Assembly (NCBI RefSeq): GCF_003334305.1
Contig: NZ_QOWS01000035.1
Strand: one strand, 5' to 3'
DNA length: 31,024 nt
Source: Escherichia coli
GTDB taxonomy: Bacteria; Pseudomonadota; Gammaproteobacteria; Enterobacterales; Enterobacteriaceae
Shown here: positions 2,147-7,962 of the stretch, piece after piece
Layout: every line of letters begins with the position of its first letter
How positions within the stretch are numbered: position 1 is the stretch's first letter
Notes under the pieces: model-generated
Database searches by the model: none
What the model was told of the DNA's origin: nothing
Seen by the model: only the letters and a program-made list of their open reading frames with translations
Program-made: the position numbers and the translations under genes

Positions 2147-3436
2147 ATGAAAGTATTAGTGATTGGTAACGGCGGGCGCGAGCACGCGCTGGCCTGGAAA
2201 GCGGCCCAGTCGCCGCTGGTTGAGACTGTTTTTGTTGCTCCGGGTAATGCAGGCACTGCACTGGAACCCGCGCTGCAAAACGTTGCTATTGGCGTGACCG
2301 ATATCCCGGCGCTGTTGGATTTCGCACAAAACGAAAAGATTGATCTGACCATCGTCGGCCCGGAAGCGCCGCTGGTGAAAGGCGTGGTCGATACCTTCCG
2401 CGCCGCCGGGCTGAAAATCTTCGGCCCAACCGCAGGTGCGGCCCAACTGGAAGGCTCAAAAGCGTTTACCAAAGATTTCCTGGCCCGCCATAAGATCCCT
2501 ACGGCGGAATACCAGAACTTCACCGAGGTAGAACCTGCGCTGGCGTATCTGCGTGAGAAAGGCGCGCCAATCGTCATTAAAGCGGACGGTCTGGCTGCCG
2601 GGAAAGGCGTTATCGTGGCGATGACGCTGGAAGAAGCGGAAGCGGCTGTTCACGATATGCTGGCGGGCAACGCTTTTGGCGACGCGGGTCATCGCATCGT
2701 TATCGAAGAGTTCCTCGATGGCGAAGAAGCGAGCTTTATCGTGATGGTAGACGGCGAGCATGTGCTGCCGATGGCCACCAGCCAGGATCACAAACGCGTA
2801 GGCGATAAAGATACCGGACCAAACACGGGCGGGATGGGCGCTTACTCCCCCGCGCCGGTAGTAACCGATGAAGTTCATCAGCGCACCATGGAACGTATCA
2901 TCTGGCCAACCGTGAAAGGCATGGCGGCGGAAGGCAACACCTACACCGGTTTTCTCTACGCGGGCCTGATGATCGACAAACAGGGCAATCCGAAGGTTAT
3001 CGAATTTAACTGCCGCTTTGGCGATCCAGAAACCCAGCCGATTATGCTGCGCATGAAGTCCGATCTGGTTGAGCTCTGCCTGGCGGCCTGTGAAGGCAAA
3101 CTGGACGAGAAAACGTCAGAGTGGGATGAACGCGCTTCTCTCGGCGTGGTGATGGCTGCGGGTGGATATCCGGGTGATTACCGCACCGGTGACGTGATCC
3201 ACGGCCTGCCGCTGGAAGAAGTGGCAGGCGGCAAAGTGTTCCACGCGGGCACGAAACTGGCGGATAACGAGCAGGTAGTGACCAGCGGCGGGCGCGTACT
3301 GTGCGTCACCGCGCTGGGTCATACCGTGGCAGAAGCGCAGAAACGCGCTTATGCCTTAATGACCGATATTCACTGGGACGACTGCTTCTGCCGGAAAGAT
3401 ATCGGCTGGCGCGCTATCGAACGCGAGCAGAACTAA
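2147..3436 (+). CDS. purD: phosphoribosylamine-glycine ligase (GAR synthetase)
   Basis: 429-aa ORF with ATP-grasp-type sequence, recognised as PurD; forms an operon with purH. Confidence 0.96.
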   Translation: MKVLVIGNGGREHALAWKAAQSPLVETVFVAPGNAGTALEPALQNVAIGVTDIPALLDFAQNEKIDLTIVGPEAPLVKGVVDTFRAAGLKIFGPTAGAAQLEGSKAFTKDFLARHKIPTAEYQNFTEVEPALAYLREKGAPIVIKADGLAAGKGVIVAMTLEEAEAAVHDMLAGNAFGDAGHRIVIEEFLDGEEASFIVMVDGEHVLPMATSQDHKRVGDKDTGPNTGGMGAYSPAPVVTDEVHQRTMERIIWPTVKGMAAEGNTYTGFLYAGLMIDKQGNPKVIEFNCRFGDPETQPIMLRMKSDLVELCLAACEGKLDEKTSEWDERASLGVVMAAGGYPGDYRTGDVIHGLPLEEVAGGKVFHAGTKLADNEQVVTSGGRVLCVTALGHTVAEAQKRAYALMTDIHWDDCFCRKDIGWRAIEREQN

Positions 3437-4758
3437 CGCGACAGTTTTGCCAATAGCGTTTTGCGCGTGATCCCTAACTGACGGGCGGCTTCGGTTTTGT
3501 TGCCGCCCGTTTTCTCCAGTGCCGCCAGAATCACTTCTTTTTCGACTTCCACCAGCGGCTGAATATCCTGACTTTGCCCCAGCGGGATCGGCGTACTGGC
3601 AATCGCCAGCGGCAGCTCGCGTTCGGAAATATATTCCCCGGTCAGCAGCACCACCGACCTTTCCACCGCGTTTTCCAGTTCACGAATGTTTCCCGGCCAG
3701 TCGTAGTGGATCAGCAAATCCATCGCCTGTGGCGTAAAGCCTTTTACCGCCTTGCGATTACGCTCGGCAAAACGCTGAAGAAAATGGCTAGCCAGCAGAG
3801 GGATATCCTCCCGCCGTTGCCGCAGCGATGGTACTTCAATCGCCACCACATTCAGGCGATAGTAGAGATCCTGGCGAAAACGCCCGGCATTCACCTCTGC
3901 GGCAAGATCGCGATGGGTCGCCGCAATCAGCCGGACATCAACCGAGATAGTCTGGTTGCTACCGACACGCTGAACTTCGCGCTCCTGAATCGCACGCAGC
4001 AGACGCACCTGCATCATCGGCGAGATATCGCCAATTTCATCGAGAAACAGCGTGCCGCCGTCCGCCTCAACAAAGCGCCCTTCCCGGCGTTTATCGGCTC
4101 CAGTAAACGCCCCTTTTTCGTGACCGAACAATTCAGATTCCAGTAAGGATTCGTTGAGTGCCGCACAGTTGAGCGTTACCAGCGGTTTTTCGCTACGTGC
4201 GCTACTGGCGTGAATCGCCCTGGCGACCAGCTCTTTACCGGTGCCGGAATCGCCGTGGATCAGTACCGTGGCTTCCGATGGCGCGACGAGGGCGATTTCA
4301 CTGAGCAGGTGTTGCATCGCCGGGCTTTTACCGACCATACCGAACTGGCTGGCAGTCACCGCAGGTGTTTCAGCATCAATACTGTGCGTATGCGCGAGCG
4401 CTTTTTCCAGCGTCGCCTGTAGGTTATCGAAATCCAGCGGCTTGATGAGATAATCCAGCGCCCCAGTTTTCAGTGCCTCTACCGCCGTCTCGACGCTGGA
4501 GTACGCAGTCATAATCAGCACCGGAATTGCCGGGTTTAACGCTTTGATCTCTTTCAGCGTGGCGATGCCGTCCATCTCCGCCATTCGCACATCGCAAAGC
4601 ACAAGATCAAAAACCTGTTCCCGCACCTGCTCCAGCGCCTGTCGCCCGCTGTTCGCCAGCGCGACGTTATAGCCCCAGCCGCGCAGTAAAGCCTGCAAAA
4701 TAGTGCAGTGGCTAATGTCATCATCCACCACCAGAATATCGATATTATCGTGCGTCAT
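3433..4758 (-). CDS. zraR: sigma-54-dependent two-component response regulator (NtrC family)
   Basis: 441 aa. Receiver domain (VVDDD...D...K), AAA+ sigma-54 activation domain with Walker A GDSGTGKE and GAFTGA motif, C-terminal HTH. Overlaps zraS by 4 nt. Confidence 0.95.
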
Positions 4759-6131
4759 CCTTGTGGGTCCTTACGCGTAATATTGACCGGAAGCCAGAGG
4801 GTGAACGTTGAGCCTTTTCCCTCCTGGCTTGCGACCTGAATTGTACCACCGTGTTGTTCAACAATATTATGCACGACCGCCAGCCCCAATCCGGTGCCTT
4901 CGGCTTTGGTGGTGAAGTACGGAGTGAAGATGGCTTCAAGCTGATCTGCCGCAATTCCCTTACCGCTGTCGGTAACGCTGATTTTCACGCCCGCGCCGCT
5001 TTCGCTGACCGTCACGCTAATCACGCCATGCTGACCAATCGCCTGAATAGCATTGAGATAGAGATTCAACAGGACCTGAGTCAGCCTGTCCGGATCGGCC
5101 TGAATTTCCGGTAATGTGTCGTTGGCGGTAAAGCGTAACTGGATCTCCCGGCTGTTTGCATCCTGGCTTACCAGCTGTAATGAGTGGTTAATCAGCGTGT
5201 TGAGATCCACCGCCTGCAAAGCCAGATGCGTTGGCTTAACCAGTTCCAGCAACTCGCTTACCACGCGGTTTAAACGGTCGGCTTCTTTCGCCATCACCTG
5301 CGCCAATTGATGCGCTTCTCCCCCTGCTGGCGCGCGTTCGGCAAAGTATTTCGCCAGTCCTTTAATCGAGGAAAGTGGGTTACGGATTTCGTGGGCAACG
5401 CCTGCCGCAAGATGCCCCAGCGCCACCAGCTTCTCTTTGCGCTTCATTTCATCTTGTAGAAGCTGGCGCGAGCGCAGATAGCGGCGATACCAGAAGAATG
5501 ACAATACGCTTGCCAGCAAGACCGTCGCCAGGGCGAAGAGGATAATCAGGGTGTTTCTCTGCTCACGATCTTCGGCACTCACAATATTACTGGCGTCGAA
5601 AGCGATGAAAATTGCTTGTGGTGTTGCGGCATACTGCTGCATATGGCGCATCCGGTGCATTCCAGCAGCAAACATCGGTTGAAACTGGCGATAAATTTCC
5701 AGAACAGGCTCGCCGTCTGCGCTATCGATCCGCCGCCACGCTTCTTCATCTCCAGGATGTAACTGCTGCATTTCCTGCGGGGAATAAAGCTGTTTTCCCA
5801 CCATGCCGGAGTTGCTATGCATCACGATTGTTCCTTGTTCATCCGTGACCGCAAACCAACGTACTCCAGGCTGCCCGGCCATTTCTTCCAGTAAGGCCTG
5901 CTGCTGCGCATGATGCATGCGCATCCCCATGCCGACGCGCGAGCCGGATTCAAGAGCGCGAATAAGTACACTGCCTTTTTCCAGCAGCGTTTGTCTGGCG
6001 GCGGCAGTCTCGCGCCCATAATCGCGAATCACCGTCACCGCAAACAACCCTACCAGCCCAACAATGACCACGGGGAGGATCGCGCTTAACCATTTAGCTA
6101 AGGAGTCTTTAGAACGTTGCATAAAACGCAT
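4755..6131 (-). CDS. zraS: sensor histidine kinase
   Basis: 458 aa. Two transmembrane segments around a periplasmic domain, H-box (HEIRNPL) and HATPase motifs (DxGxG, GxGLGL). No in-frame start further upstream (stop 14 codons up). Confidence 0.93.
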   Translation of the reverse strand: MRFMQRSKDSLAKWLSAILPVVIVGLVGLFAVTVIRDYGRETAAARQTLLEKGSVLIRALESGSRVGMGMRMHHAQQQALLEEMAGQPGVRWFAVTDEQGTIVMHSNSGMVGKQLYSPQEMQQLHPGDEEAWRRIDSADGEPVLEIYRQFQPMFAAGMHRMRHMQQYAATPQAIFIAFDASNIVSAEDREQRNTLIILFALATVLLASVLSFFWYRRYLRSRQLLQDEMKRKEKLVALGHLAAGVAHEIRNPLSSIKGLAKYFAERAPAGGEAHQLAQVMAKEADRLNRVVSELLELVKPTHLALQAVDLNTLINHSLQLVSQDANSREIQLRFTANDTLPEIQADPDRLTQVLLNLYLNAIQAIGQHGVISVTVSESGAGVKISVTDSGKGIAADQLEAIFTPYFTTKAEGTGLGLAVVHNIVEQHGGTIQVASQEGKGSTFTLWLPVNITRKDPQG

Positions 6132-6162
6132 CTTCTTCTTTGCCTGCTCATCCCTTTCTGAC

Positions 6163-6178
6163 AGCAGAAATCATGCCA
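6163..6178 (-). promoter_or_regulatory. sigma-54 promoter for zraSR
   Basis: Minus strand TGGCAT-gattt-CTGCT with GG/GC spacing of 12, about 30 nt upstream of the zraS ATG. Confidence 0.6.
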
Positions 6179-6229
6179 TCTTTTATCAGCGCTTACCCTG
6201 CGCTGTAACACAAAGGCTTAAGTTTCAAT

Positions 6230-6275
6230 GAGTAAAAATGACTCGCTACCCGCAGCAGGCGAGTCATTTTTACTC
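6230..6275. promoter_or_regulatory. ZraR upstream activator site (perfect inverted repeat)
   Basis: gagtaaaaatgactcgc (6230-6246) and gcgagtcatttttactc (6259-6275) are exact reverse complements separated by 12 bp, lying between two divergent sigma-54 promoters. Confidence 0.75.
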
Positions 6276-6317
6276 GTTTATCATGCCAGATTACCCGTCA
6301 TATCAGCGTTTCATCGT

Positions 6318-6333
6318 TGGCACGGAAGATGCA
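6318..6333 (+). promoter_or_regulatory. sigma-54 promoter for zraP
   Basis: TGGCAC (6318-6323) and TGCA (6330-6333), GG-to-GC spacing 12, about 35 nt upstream of the zraP ATG. Confidence 0.7.
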
Positions 6334-6368
6334 ATACCCGAAGTAAGACAACCACTGGAGGATTAACC

Positions 6369-6794
6369 ATGAAACGGAACACGAAAATTGCCCTGGTAAT
6401 GATGGCGCTTTCAGCAATGGCGATGGGATCGACATCTGCATTTGCTCACGGCGGACACGGTATGTGGCAGCAAAATGCCGCGCCTTTGACCAGCGAACAA
6501 CAGACAGCGTGGCAGAAAATCCATAATGACTTTTACGCTCAAAGCAGCGCACTGCAACAGCAACTGGTGACGAAGCGTTATGAATACAATGCCCTGTTAG
6601 CCGCGAACCCACCGGATAGCAGCAAAATTAACGCGGTCGCCAAAGAGATGGAGAATTTGCGTCAGTCGTTAGATGAGTTACGGGTGAAACGAGATATCGC
6701 GATGGCTGAAGCGGGTATTCCGCGCGGAGCCGGAATGGGCATGGGCTACGGCGGCTGCGGTGGTGGCGGTCATATGGGTATGGGCCACTGGTAA
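6369..6794 (+). CDS. zraP: periplasmic zinc-responsive chaperone (CpxP-like), signal peptide, Gly/His/Met-rich C-terminus
   Basis: Internal ATG at 6369 preceded by SD ggagga at 6355-6360. Product starts MKRNTKIALVMMALSAMAMGSTSAFA (signal peptide). The ORF-track start at 6228 runs through the promoter/UAS and is rejected. Confidence 0.9.
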   Translation: MKRNTKIALVMMALSAMAMGSTSAFAHGGHGMWQQNAAPLTSEQQTAWQKIHNDFYAQSSALQQQLVTKRYEYNALLAANPPDSSKINAVAKEMENLRQSLDELRVKRDIAMAEAGIPRGAGMGMGYGGCGGGGHMGMGHW

Positions 6795-6795
6795 A

Positions 6796-7491
6796 TCAGA
6801 ACGTTTTCTCGTTGGGTTGCCAGCGACAGAAATCAGAGTTTGCCACTAACAGTAATTGCGAACCTTCGGGCGCTTCCAGCCATGCCACGCTGACATCAAC
6901 AGAAGAGCGGCTCTGGCGGCGCTCGATATGCGCTATCGCCTGCGAATCTAAATCAGGTTTAATGGTTTGCCCTTCGCAGGTGGTCACGGTCTGTTCCATC
7001 GCATGCCAGCGCCCCTGGCGCAGCACGACTCTCCCCTGACGTAAGGCATCGCTAATCTGGCGGATCTGATCAGCACGATAACGGTATAAATCGATTTGGT
7101 CGTTAGAAAGCTGCTGCTTTTCCCCATCGGATTCACGTTGCATAAAGCTCAGATCACCGCGATCGTCAAAACGCGCGCGAATGTTCACCGGCGGTTTGCT
7201 GTAAACATTGATATTGATGAGCGTGAGGTTATCGCCCTGCCAGCGATACTCTCGCGTCGTGGTATCGCCACTGCGCCACGGGCTAAACACGGCAAGCAGA
7301 TGCACATTATCGCCGCTGTCTTTTCGCCAGATGCGTACCGCGCCCTGGTCTTCAGCAAATCCACTGGCGGTAAAGGGAGGAAGTGAAGAGTTGTGACTAC
7401 AGGCAGTGAGAAACAGAGCGCCTGCCAGCATCAATGATCGACGCCAGAAAGACAAAAGGGGTGAAACCACCCCTTCGTTAAAACTGTTCAC
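6796..7491 (-). CDS. yjaH: putative lipoprotein of unknown function (YjaH-like)
   Basis: ORF with lipoprotein-type signal (WRRSLMLAGALFLTAC, lipobox LTAC). Start is uncertain: GTG at 7497 or 7491, or ATG at 7431. I chose 7491 because it gives 231 aa, the length I recall for YjaH; no clear SD at any candidate. Confidence 0.7.
   Translation of the reverse strand: MNSFNEGVVSPLLSFWRRSLMLAGALFLTACSHNSSLPPFTASGFAEDQGAVRIWRKDSGDNVHLLAVFSPWRSGDTTTREYRWQGDNLTLININVYSKPPVNIRARFDDRGDLSFMQRESDGEKQQLSNDQIDLYRYRADQIRQISDALRQGRVVLRQGRWHAMEQTVTTCEGQTIKPDLDSQAIAHIERRQSRSSVDVSVAWLEAPEGSQLLLVANSDFCRWQPNEKTF
7444..7476 (-). terminator. intrinsic terminator downstream of hupA
   Basis: Minus strand AGGGGTG-GUUU-CACCCCT hairpin followed by TTTTGTCTTTCT, about 30 nt after the hupA stop. 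Confidence 0.75.
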
Positions 7492-7503
7492 TGCCACGCA
7501 ATC

Positions 7504-7776
7504 TTACTTAACTGCGTCTTTCAGTGCCTTGCCAGAAACAAATGCCGGTACGTTAGCTGCGGCAATTTTGATTTCTTTACCGGTCTGCGGGTTGCGGCCA
7601 GTACGCTCAGCGCGGTGGTTCACTTTGAAGGTACCGAAACCAACCAGTTGTACAGCATCGCCTTCTTTCAGAGACTCAGTAATTGCAGCCAGAGTGGACT
7701 CCAGAGCAGCTTTAGCCTGGGTTTTGGACAGTTCTGCTTTCTCTGCAATTACATCAATCAGTTGAGTCTTGTTCAT
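7504..7776 (-). CDS. hupA: DNA-binding protein HU-alpha
   Basis: 90-aa [17 protein letters not shown]...[12 protein letters not shown], recognised as HU alpha. Confidence 0.97.
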
Positions 7777-7962
7777 AAGTTATCCTTACAATGTGTTTAT
7801 CGCTTGCTAAGCATCGAGTGCGACGGAAATGCCAGAATAGCACTCTCCTGCATACACGCACCGATAGCCACTTTTTTTCGCCCCCCAAATGTAGACCAGA
7901 CGGGGGGCGAAAGGGAAGACTCCAGGTACGACAAATCAGGCGTTAAATCACGTTTTCTGGTC

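Follow-up and report, generated by a model that had tools for sequence, protein, structure and literature searches.

Two nested open reading frames end at position 6794 of the window, by which we mean the whole 31,024-nt stretch of E. coli DNA analysed here. The locus raises the question of which frame is the real protein and whether the glycine-rich tail that closes it is a conserved, functional segment or arbitrary low complexity.

Identity and neighbourhood of zraP

Translation of 6369-6794 on the plus strand yields a 141-aa protein ending in ...GIPRGAGMGMGYGGCGGGGHMGMGHW and a stop codon. The product is identical to ZraP (YjaI) of E. coli K-12 (WP_000828222.1, UniProt P0AAA9), and no difference was found in sequence, locus, promoter or neighbours. 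The gene and its surroundings, 769 nt in all, match E. coli K-12 MG1655 with 100% identity. In MG1655, RefSeq annotates exactly this 141-aa frame (zraP, "zinc resistance sensor/chaperone ZraP"), flanked on one side by zraS-zraR, a divergent operon, and on the other by yjaH-hupA, which converge on it. The same 769-nt stretch was matched in 5,421 of the 5,426 complete E. coli genomes; five genomes had no match, and two matches lay on plasmids. With NF008584, the NCBIfam equivalog model of ZraP, the protein reaches 274.4 bits (cut-off 200), and residues 1-141 align with profile positions 1-145 of 145. Pfam PF13801 (Metal_resist) matches residues 8-120 (E 4.8e-23), and PF07813 (LTXXQ) gives a marginal match (E 0.018). 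The sole relative among solved structures is Salmonella ZraP (PDB 3LAY, E 1.9e-51). The genes concerned are the following.

3433-4758, minus strand: zraR, sigma-54-dependent response regulator, partner of the histidine kinase zraS
4755-6131, minus strand: zraS, divergent from zraP
6369-6794, plus strand: zraP coding sequence, 141 codons plus a TAA stop (from translation, identity with MG1655, NCBIfam and Pfam)

The order zraR-zraS / zraP / yjaH-hupA is common to Salmonella, Citrobacter and [Enterobacter] lignolyticus. The Salmonella enterica orthologue (STM4172, 3LAY) is about 65% identical and shares the hairpin fold, the gene order and the sigma-54 promoter. Taken as a whole, the region is very probably best explained as zraP of E. 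coli K-12, the accessory gene of ZraPSR, a system that responds to zinc and envelope stress, and we hold the identity and architecture of ZraP with high confidence. Descriptions of the gene, the signal peptide, the sigma-54 promoter and the His/Gly-rich ends date from 1998-2015. The gene, promoter, signal peptide and metal-rich ends are thus already known and nothing is new at these levels; with the gene known and a crystal structure of the Salmonella orthologue in existence, the locus carries little weight for discovery.

The stop codons of zraP (TAA, 6792-6794, plus strand) and yjaH (TGA, 6796-6798, minus strand) converge one base apart. No terminator-like hairpin was found 3' of zraP on the plus strand, and transcription of zraP presumably runs antisense into yjaH. 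No sigma-70-like promoter was found anywhere in 6000-7900. Elsewhere in the window, three Rfam matches exceed their gathering scores: a TPP riboswitch (11777-11877, plus strand) ahead of a 631-aa ORF at 11958, thiC by position; the sRNA sroH (17570-17730, plus strand), 3' of the thi operon; and "P26" (27066-27127, minus strand), just upstream of a 1353-aa ORF ending at 26845, rpoB by size and position. All three are expected in this K-12 region.

Divergent promoters and the start of the protein

The DNA between zraS and zraP holds the following elements.

6163-6179, minus strand: sigma-54 promoter ATGGCATGATTTCTGCT for divergent transcription of zraSR; every locus examined has it on this strand
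6227-6278, no strand assigned: 20-nt inverted repeat, AATGAGTAAAAATGACTCGC / GCGAGTCATTTTTACTCGTT, arms 95% complementary
6228-6368, plus strand: N-terminal extension of the 188-aa ORF, non-coding promoter/enhancer DNA with the promoter and the inverted repeat inside it
6317-6333, plus strand: sigma-54 promoter of zraP, TTGGCACGGAAGATGCA, with -24 GG and -12 GC, found by pattern match
6357-6361, plus strand: Shine-Dalgarno sequence GGAGG, 7 nt upstream of the zraP ATG, assigned from sequence context, GGAG being kept in other genera

Both promoters coincide with published sigma-54 ChIP-seq sites: the 17-mer TTGGCACGGAAGATGCA is identical to site OS38 for zraP, and ATGGCATGATTTCTGCT is site OS39 for zraS (PMC4591121). 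One inverted repeat, at 6227-6278, lies between these two divergent promoters. We aligned the intergenic regions of E. coli, Salmonella, Citrobacter and [Enterobacter] lignolyticus. Conserved in this alignment are the repeat arms, the two sigma-54 elements, the GGAG and the ATGAAACGGAA start, and nothing else. The zraP sigma-54 element is invariant in Salmonella, Citrobacter and [Enterobacter] lignolyticus, and the arms of the repeat are nearly invariant in the four genera while their flanks diverge. Between the conserved elements the sequences have diverged, and their indels have lengths not divisible by three. Leonhartsberger et al. reportedly found in 2001 that ZraR binds at the inverted repeat; on this basis the repeat is presumed to be the enhancer-binding site of ZraR common to zraP and zraSR. 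Others have established that zinc induces zraP through ZraSR, acting at the sigma-54 promoter (sigma-54 site: PMC4591121). In the mechanism we propose, phosphorylated ZraR would bind the inverted repeat and activate the sigma-54 promoter when zinc reaches the periplasm. The gene itself is read from the ATG at 6369, after the GGAGG ribosome-binding site.

The longer frame, 6228-6794, would add 47 residues to the N-terminus and give a product of 188 aa. It is open throughout and appears in the mechanical ORF list, and forms of 186-188 aa are deposited in GenBank for UTI89, APEC O18, S. dysenteriae Sd197, E. coli 53638 and LAU-EC10. However, the conserved inverted repeat encloses its ATG at 6228, and the -24 element of the ChIP-seq-verified sigma-54 promoter follows 89 nt downstream. 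Because this ATG sits upstream of the sigma-54 promoter, the zraP transcript should lack it. No Shine-Dalgarno sequence precedes this ATG, and the extension has a GC3 of 0.38 vs 0.58 for the coding sequence. In Salmonella the frame is closed by a stop 6 codons before the ATG, the peptides encoded upstream are unrelated between genera, and with the extension the signal peptide would come to lie in the interior of the protein. The 141-aa form is the one used by RefSeq and UniProt. That the 188-aa frame is the true product is, in our estimate, extremely improbable. We rejected it as a real gene on account of the promoter and repeat inside it, the lack of a Shine-Dalgarno sequence, its GC3 and its non-conserved extension, in agreement with the earlier note on this DNA, which had described it as an artefact running through the promoter. 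The 186- and 188-aa "ZraP precursor" entries in GenBank are the same artefact as the 188-aa ORF here, so that the extended form persists in database records.

Signal peptide and helical core

Read from 6369, the protein divides into four segments, of which the first three are listed here.

6369-6446, plus strand: Sec signal peptide, residues 1-26 (MKRNTKIALVMMALSAMAMGSTSAFA), cleavage predicted after Ala26
6447-6476, plus strand: mature N-terminal His/Gly/Met segment HGGHGMWQQN, residues 27-36, from the sequence and a pLDDT below 50
6492-6710, plus strand: two-helix hairpin core, residues 42-114, from AlphaFold2 and a Foldseek match to 3LAY

The leader has the features of a Sec signal: an n-region MKRNTK with a net charge of +3, an h-region of 14 hydrophobic residues with a mean Kyte-Doolittle value of 2.14, and Ala at -3 and -1 (A-F-A) directly before His27. 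The A-x-A cleavage site is conserved across genera in an alignment of 20 orthologues. Two published in-silico studies ran SignalP on the ZraP leader and obtained cleavage at 26|27 with a Sec/SPI score of ~0.99 (PMC11356227, PMC10278209); a table in one of the two gives a 26-aa signal under UniProt P0AAA9. Both the signal peptide and the mature start HGGHGMWQQN anticipated by the earlier note are thus borne out, the latter lying directly after the predicted cleavage site. Export to the periplasm via a cleavable Sec signal, with His27 as the mature N-terminus, is a strong prediction from the sequence. Cleavage before His27 would leave a mature protein of 115 residues, with a calculated mass of 12,484 Da (12.5 kDa). 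Noll et al. reportedly observed in 1998 a zinc-induced YjaI protein of 12 kDa, which agrees with this predicted mature mass. Sec export would accordingly deliver a 115-residue periplasmic protein.

In the 20-sequence alignment, GMWQQ of the mature N-terminus is nearly invariant. The residues preceding it vary: at the mature N-terminus, Salmonella, Citrobacter, Kosakonia and the other genera in the alignment have (R/G)HHWGN..GMW, 4 residues more than the HGGHGMW of E. coli. In Salmonella, where the protein has 151 aa, the corresponding segment reads GHHWGNNDGMW. Because the E. coli N-terminus is shorter and lacks HHWG, the N-terminal metal site proposed below would differ among genera.

The core includes an LTSEQ motif (residues 40-44), the single canonical LTXXQ motif in ZraP. 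In the AlphaFold2 model, built on the 20-sequence alignment, residues 42-78 and 84-114 form helices at pLDDT above 90, and the pLDDT of residues 13-36 and 121-141 is below 50. Foldseek superposes the model on every chain of 3LAY (rmsd 1.1-1.7 Å, target-normalised TM 0.87-0.94), which is described as an "alpha-helical barrel formed by the decamer". The chains of 3LAY resolve 77-81 residues of a 175-residue construct, so that the His-rich N-terminus and the Gly/Met/His tail are not visible in the sole crystal structure. In the Salmonella crystal, hairpins of this kind assemble into a decameric helical barrel. The prediction of a helical core between His/Met/Cys-rich segments is matched by the model, in which both ends are of low confidence, and by its superposition on 3LAY.

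CpxP, Spy and CnrX (PF13801) are, like ZraP, periplasmic helical-hairpin proteins; to our knowledge they carry no Gly/Met/His/Cys tail. Weaker structural neighbours found with Foldseek are CnrX (TM about 0.63) and CpxP (3ITF, with marginal E-values). The sequence similarity to CpxP is marginal as well (20.9 bits with the NCBIfam CpxP model vs a cut-off of 148). As the model depicts it, a helical core of the CpxP/Spy/CnrX type with flexible, ligand-rich ends is an accurate description of ZraP. CpxP is, like ZraP, an accessory repressor of a two-component system; a difference is that ZraP requires zinc to repress (PMC10848872).

Conservation, proposed roles and length alleles of the tail

The fourth segment, and a repeat within it, are as follows.

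6726-6791, plus strand: Gly/Met/His/Cys tail, residues 120-141 (GAGMGMGYGGCGGGGHMGMGHW), defined by composition, shuffle test and conservation
6732-6743, plus strand: tandem hexanucleotide GGAATG GGCATG (Gly-Met x2), site of a polymorphism with 1, 2 or 3 units in DNA alignments

The tail consists of 12 Gly, 4 Met, 2 His, 1 Cys, 1 Tyr, 1 Ala and 1 Trp. Gly, His, Met and Cys make up a fraction of 0.86 of these 22 residues vs 0.05 of the core (residues 37-119), and the Shannon entropy is 2.05 bits vs 3.94. In 20,000 shuffles of the protein, a 22-residue window with 12 Gly was never reached. The tail is therefore rich in Gly, His and Met, as the earlier note had stated, and its low entropy agrees with the term "low-complexity" used there, but that term understates what is a conserved motif. 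Across the 20 aligned sequences (named sources: Escherichia, Citrobacter, Salmonella, Kosakonia and [Enterobacter] lignolyticus), M125, G126, C130, G133, G134, H135, M138 and G139 are invariant and G124, Y127, G129, G131, G137 and W141 nearly so, giving a motif GMGYGGCG...GGHMGMGxW across genera. Between genera, the length differs only in a central insert that separates the Cys from GGHMGMG. Salmonella ZraP shares GMGYGGCGG and GGHMGMGxW; it has one GM unit and an extra YGGGYHRG between the Cys and GGHMGMG.

We considered whether slippage drift produced the tail, which would then be a low-complexity appendage under no constraint and without a specific function. It is predicted to be disordered and is unresolved in 3LAY, its length is polymorphic inside E. 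coli and among genera, and some assemblies carry frameshifted or truncated tails, all of which would suit such an origin. Against this, the eight invariant and six nearly invariant positions are kept although the cores are only 68-72% identical, variation is limited to two short repeats and one central insert, and the NCBIfam equivalog profile aligns through the last residue of the tail. We regard drift as highly unlikely and rejected unconstrained low complexity in view of the positions that are invariant across genera. The restricted variation and the invariant positions argue for a function of the tail. It is a conserved motif rather than arbitrary low complexity, and it is absent from every solved structure.

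What the tail would do is less clear-cut. In our reading, both ends of ZraP are functional. Petit-Hartlein et al. reportedly found in 2015 that interfacial Zn/Cu sites lie close to the N-terminus and that the C-terminus takes part in polymerisation into a tetramer of dimers (octamer). The tail might then be mainly an oligomerisation determinant, joining hairpin dimers into an octamer or decamer, with Zn/Cu bound at the His-rich N-terminus. We give this slightly less than an even chance. The nearly invariant Trp141 and Tyr127 speak for it, since they fit packing better than metal ligation. His135 and Met125/Met138 speak against it, being invariant and typical soft or borderline metal ligands. 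Furthermore, a Cys-to-Ser mutant of ZraP loses Ag+ binding in vivo and in vitro (PMC6557469), and Cys130 of the tail is the only cysteine of the protein. On balance we lean modestly towards the tail serving as a direct metal ligand, and the two roles are compatible with each other.

Flexible Met/His-rich periplasmic stretches that bind Cu(I)/Ag(I) are found in CusF, PcoE/SilE and CopC. Binding of Ag+ by ZraP would fit the chemistry of these segments, and the comparison extends to chemistry only; unlike them, the tail of ZraP is dominated by Gly and bears a Cys. Two zinc-binding domains are attributed to ZraP in a review (PMC9175090, citing Noll 1998). Together with the Cys-to-Ser result, this favours the earlier description of both ends as likely metal-binding, which is only partly documented for the tail. 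ZraP is further described as a zinc-dependent homopolymer with chaperone activity (PMC8264917), and zinc-bound ZraP is reported to repress zraPSR (PMC10848872).

In the mechanism that we propose, the flexible ends would supply the metal-binding side chains, namely the imidazoles of His, the thioethers of Met and the thiol of Cys130. The zinc and copper sites would lie mainly near the N-terminus, where the His pair may form the main Zn/Cu site. The tail would have a dual role, in oligomerisation through Tyr127 and Trp141 and in soft-metal binding through Cys130, His135/140 and Met. Zinc-loaded ZraP would act both as a chaperone and in negative feedback on ZraS.

The length of the tail repeat varies among strains, as the earlier note had thought likely for such repeats. 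One, two or three Gly-Met units give proteins of 139 aa (...RGT-GMGYGG, e.g. NU14, D2 and APEC O1), 141 aa (...RGAGMGMGYGG, K-12 and O157) and 143 aa (...RGAGMGMGMGYGG). Among the 5,421 complete E. coli genomes, they are distributed as follows; the counts are approximate, having been taken from BLAST identity bands of at least 95% with allele-specific queries of 105, 111 and 117 nt.

2 Gly-Met units (K-12 type): about 3,368 genomes, 62%
1 Gly-Met unit: about 1,878 genomes, 35%
3 Gly-Met units: about 85 genomes, 1.5%

About 90 genomes fall outside these three main classes. One- and two-unit tails both occur on Ala121 and Thr121 backgrounds (GAGMGY in S. dysenteriae, GTGMGMGY in AR13438), a distribution suggestive of repeated slippage or recombination. 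The Gly run after Cys130 varies too, with rare runs of three or five residues, five being found in E. marmotae. Other rare alleles are Gly131Asp and a 136-aa protein that has lost Gly-Gly-Cys130. Outside the tail, the sampled alleles are invariant or differ by one substitution. Two slippage-prone repeats, (GGNATG)n and (GGN)n, account for the E. coli length alleles of 136-143 aa. Salmonella variants are found in which the tail Cys is replaced by Trp, Phe or Tyr; together with the 136-aa allele, they indicate that this Cys is not strictly indispensable.

It is conceivable that the Gly-Met alleles (1-3 units) and those of the Gly run after Cys130 (3-5 residues) are non-neutral and tune the oligomeric state or the metal stoichiometry of ZraP. 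If so, length alleles would set the zinc threshold or the feedback strength of the ZraPSR envelope-stress response in each E. coli lineage. We consider such tuning doubtful, and a phenotypic effect of the Gly-Met alleles unlikely. We know of no report of a Gly-Met allele census, and the present one is a small descriptive addition. The common 139-, 141- and 143-aa alleles are relevant when the biochemistry of ZraP is compared between strains.

Some genomes carry altered copies of the gene. In E. coli KKa014, zraP is split by an IS1A insertion, and in E. coli ET490 a 2-nt insertion has led RefSeq to flag it as a frameshifted pseudogene. In the Logan protein P0001, a stop-loss change from TAA to AAA extends the product to 174 aa, which reads into the antisense strand of yjaH.
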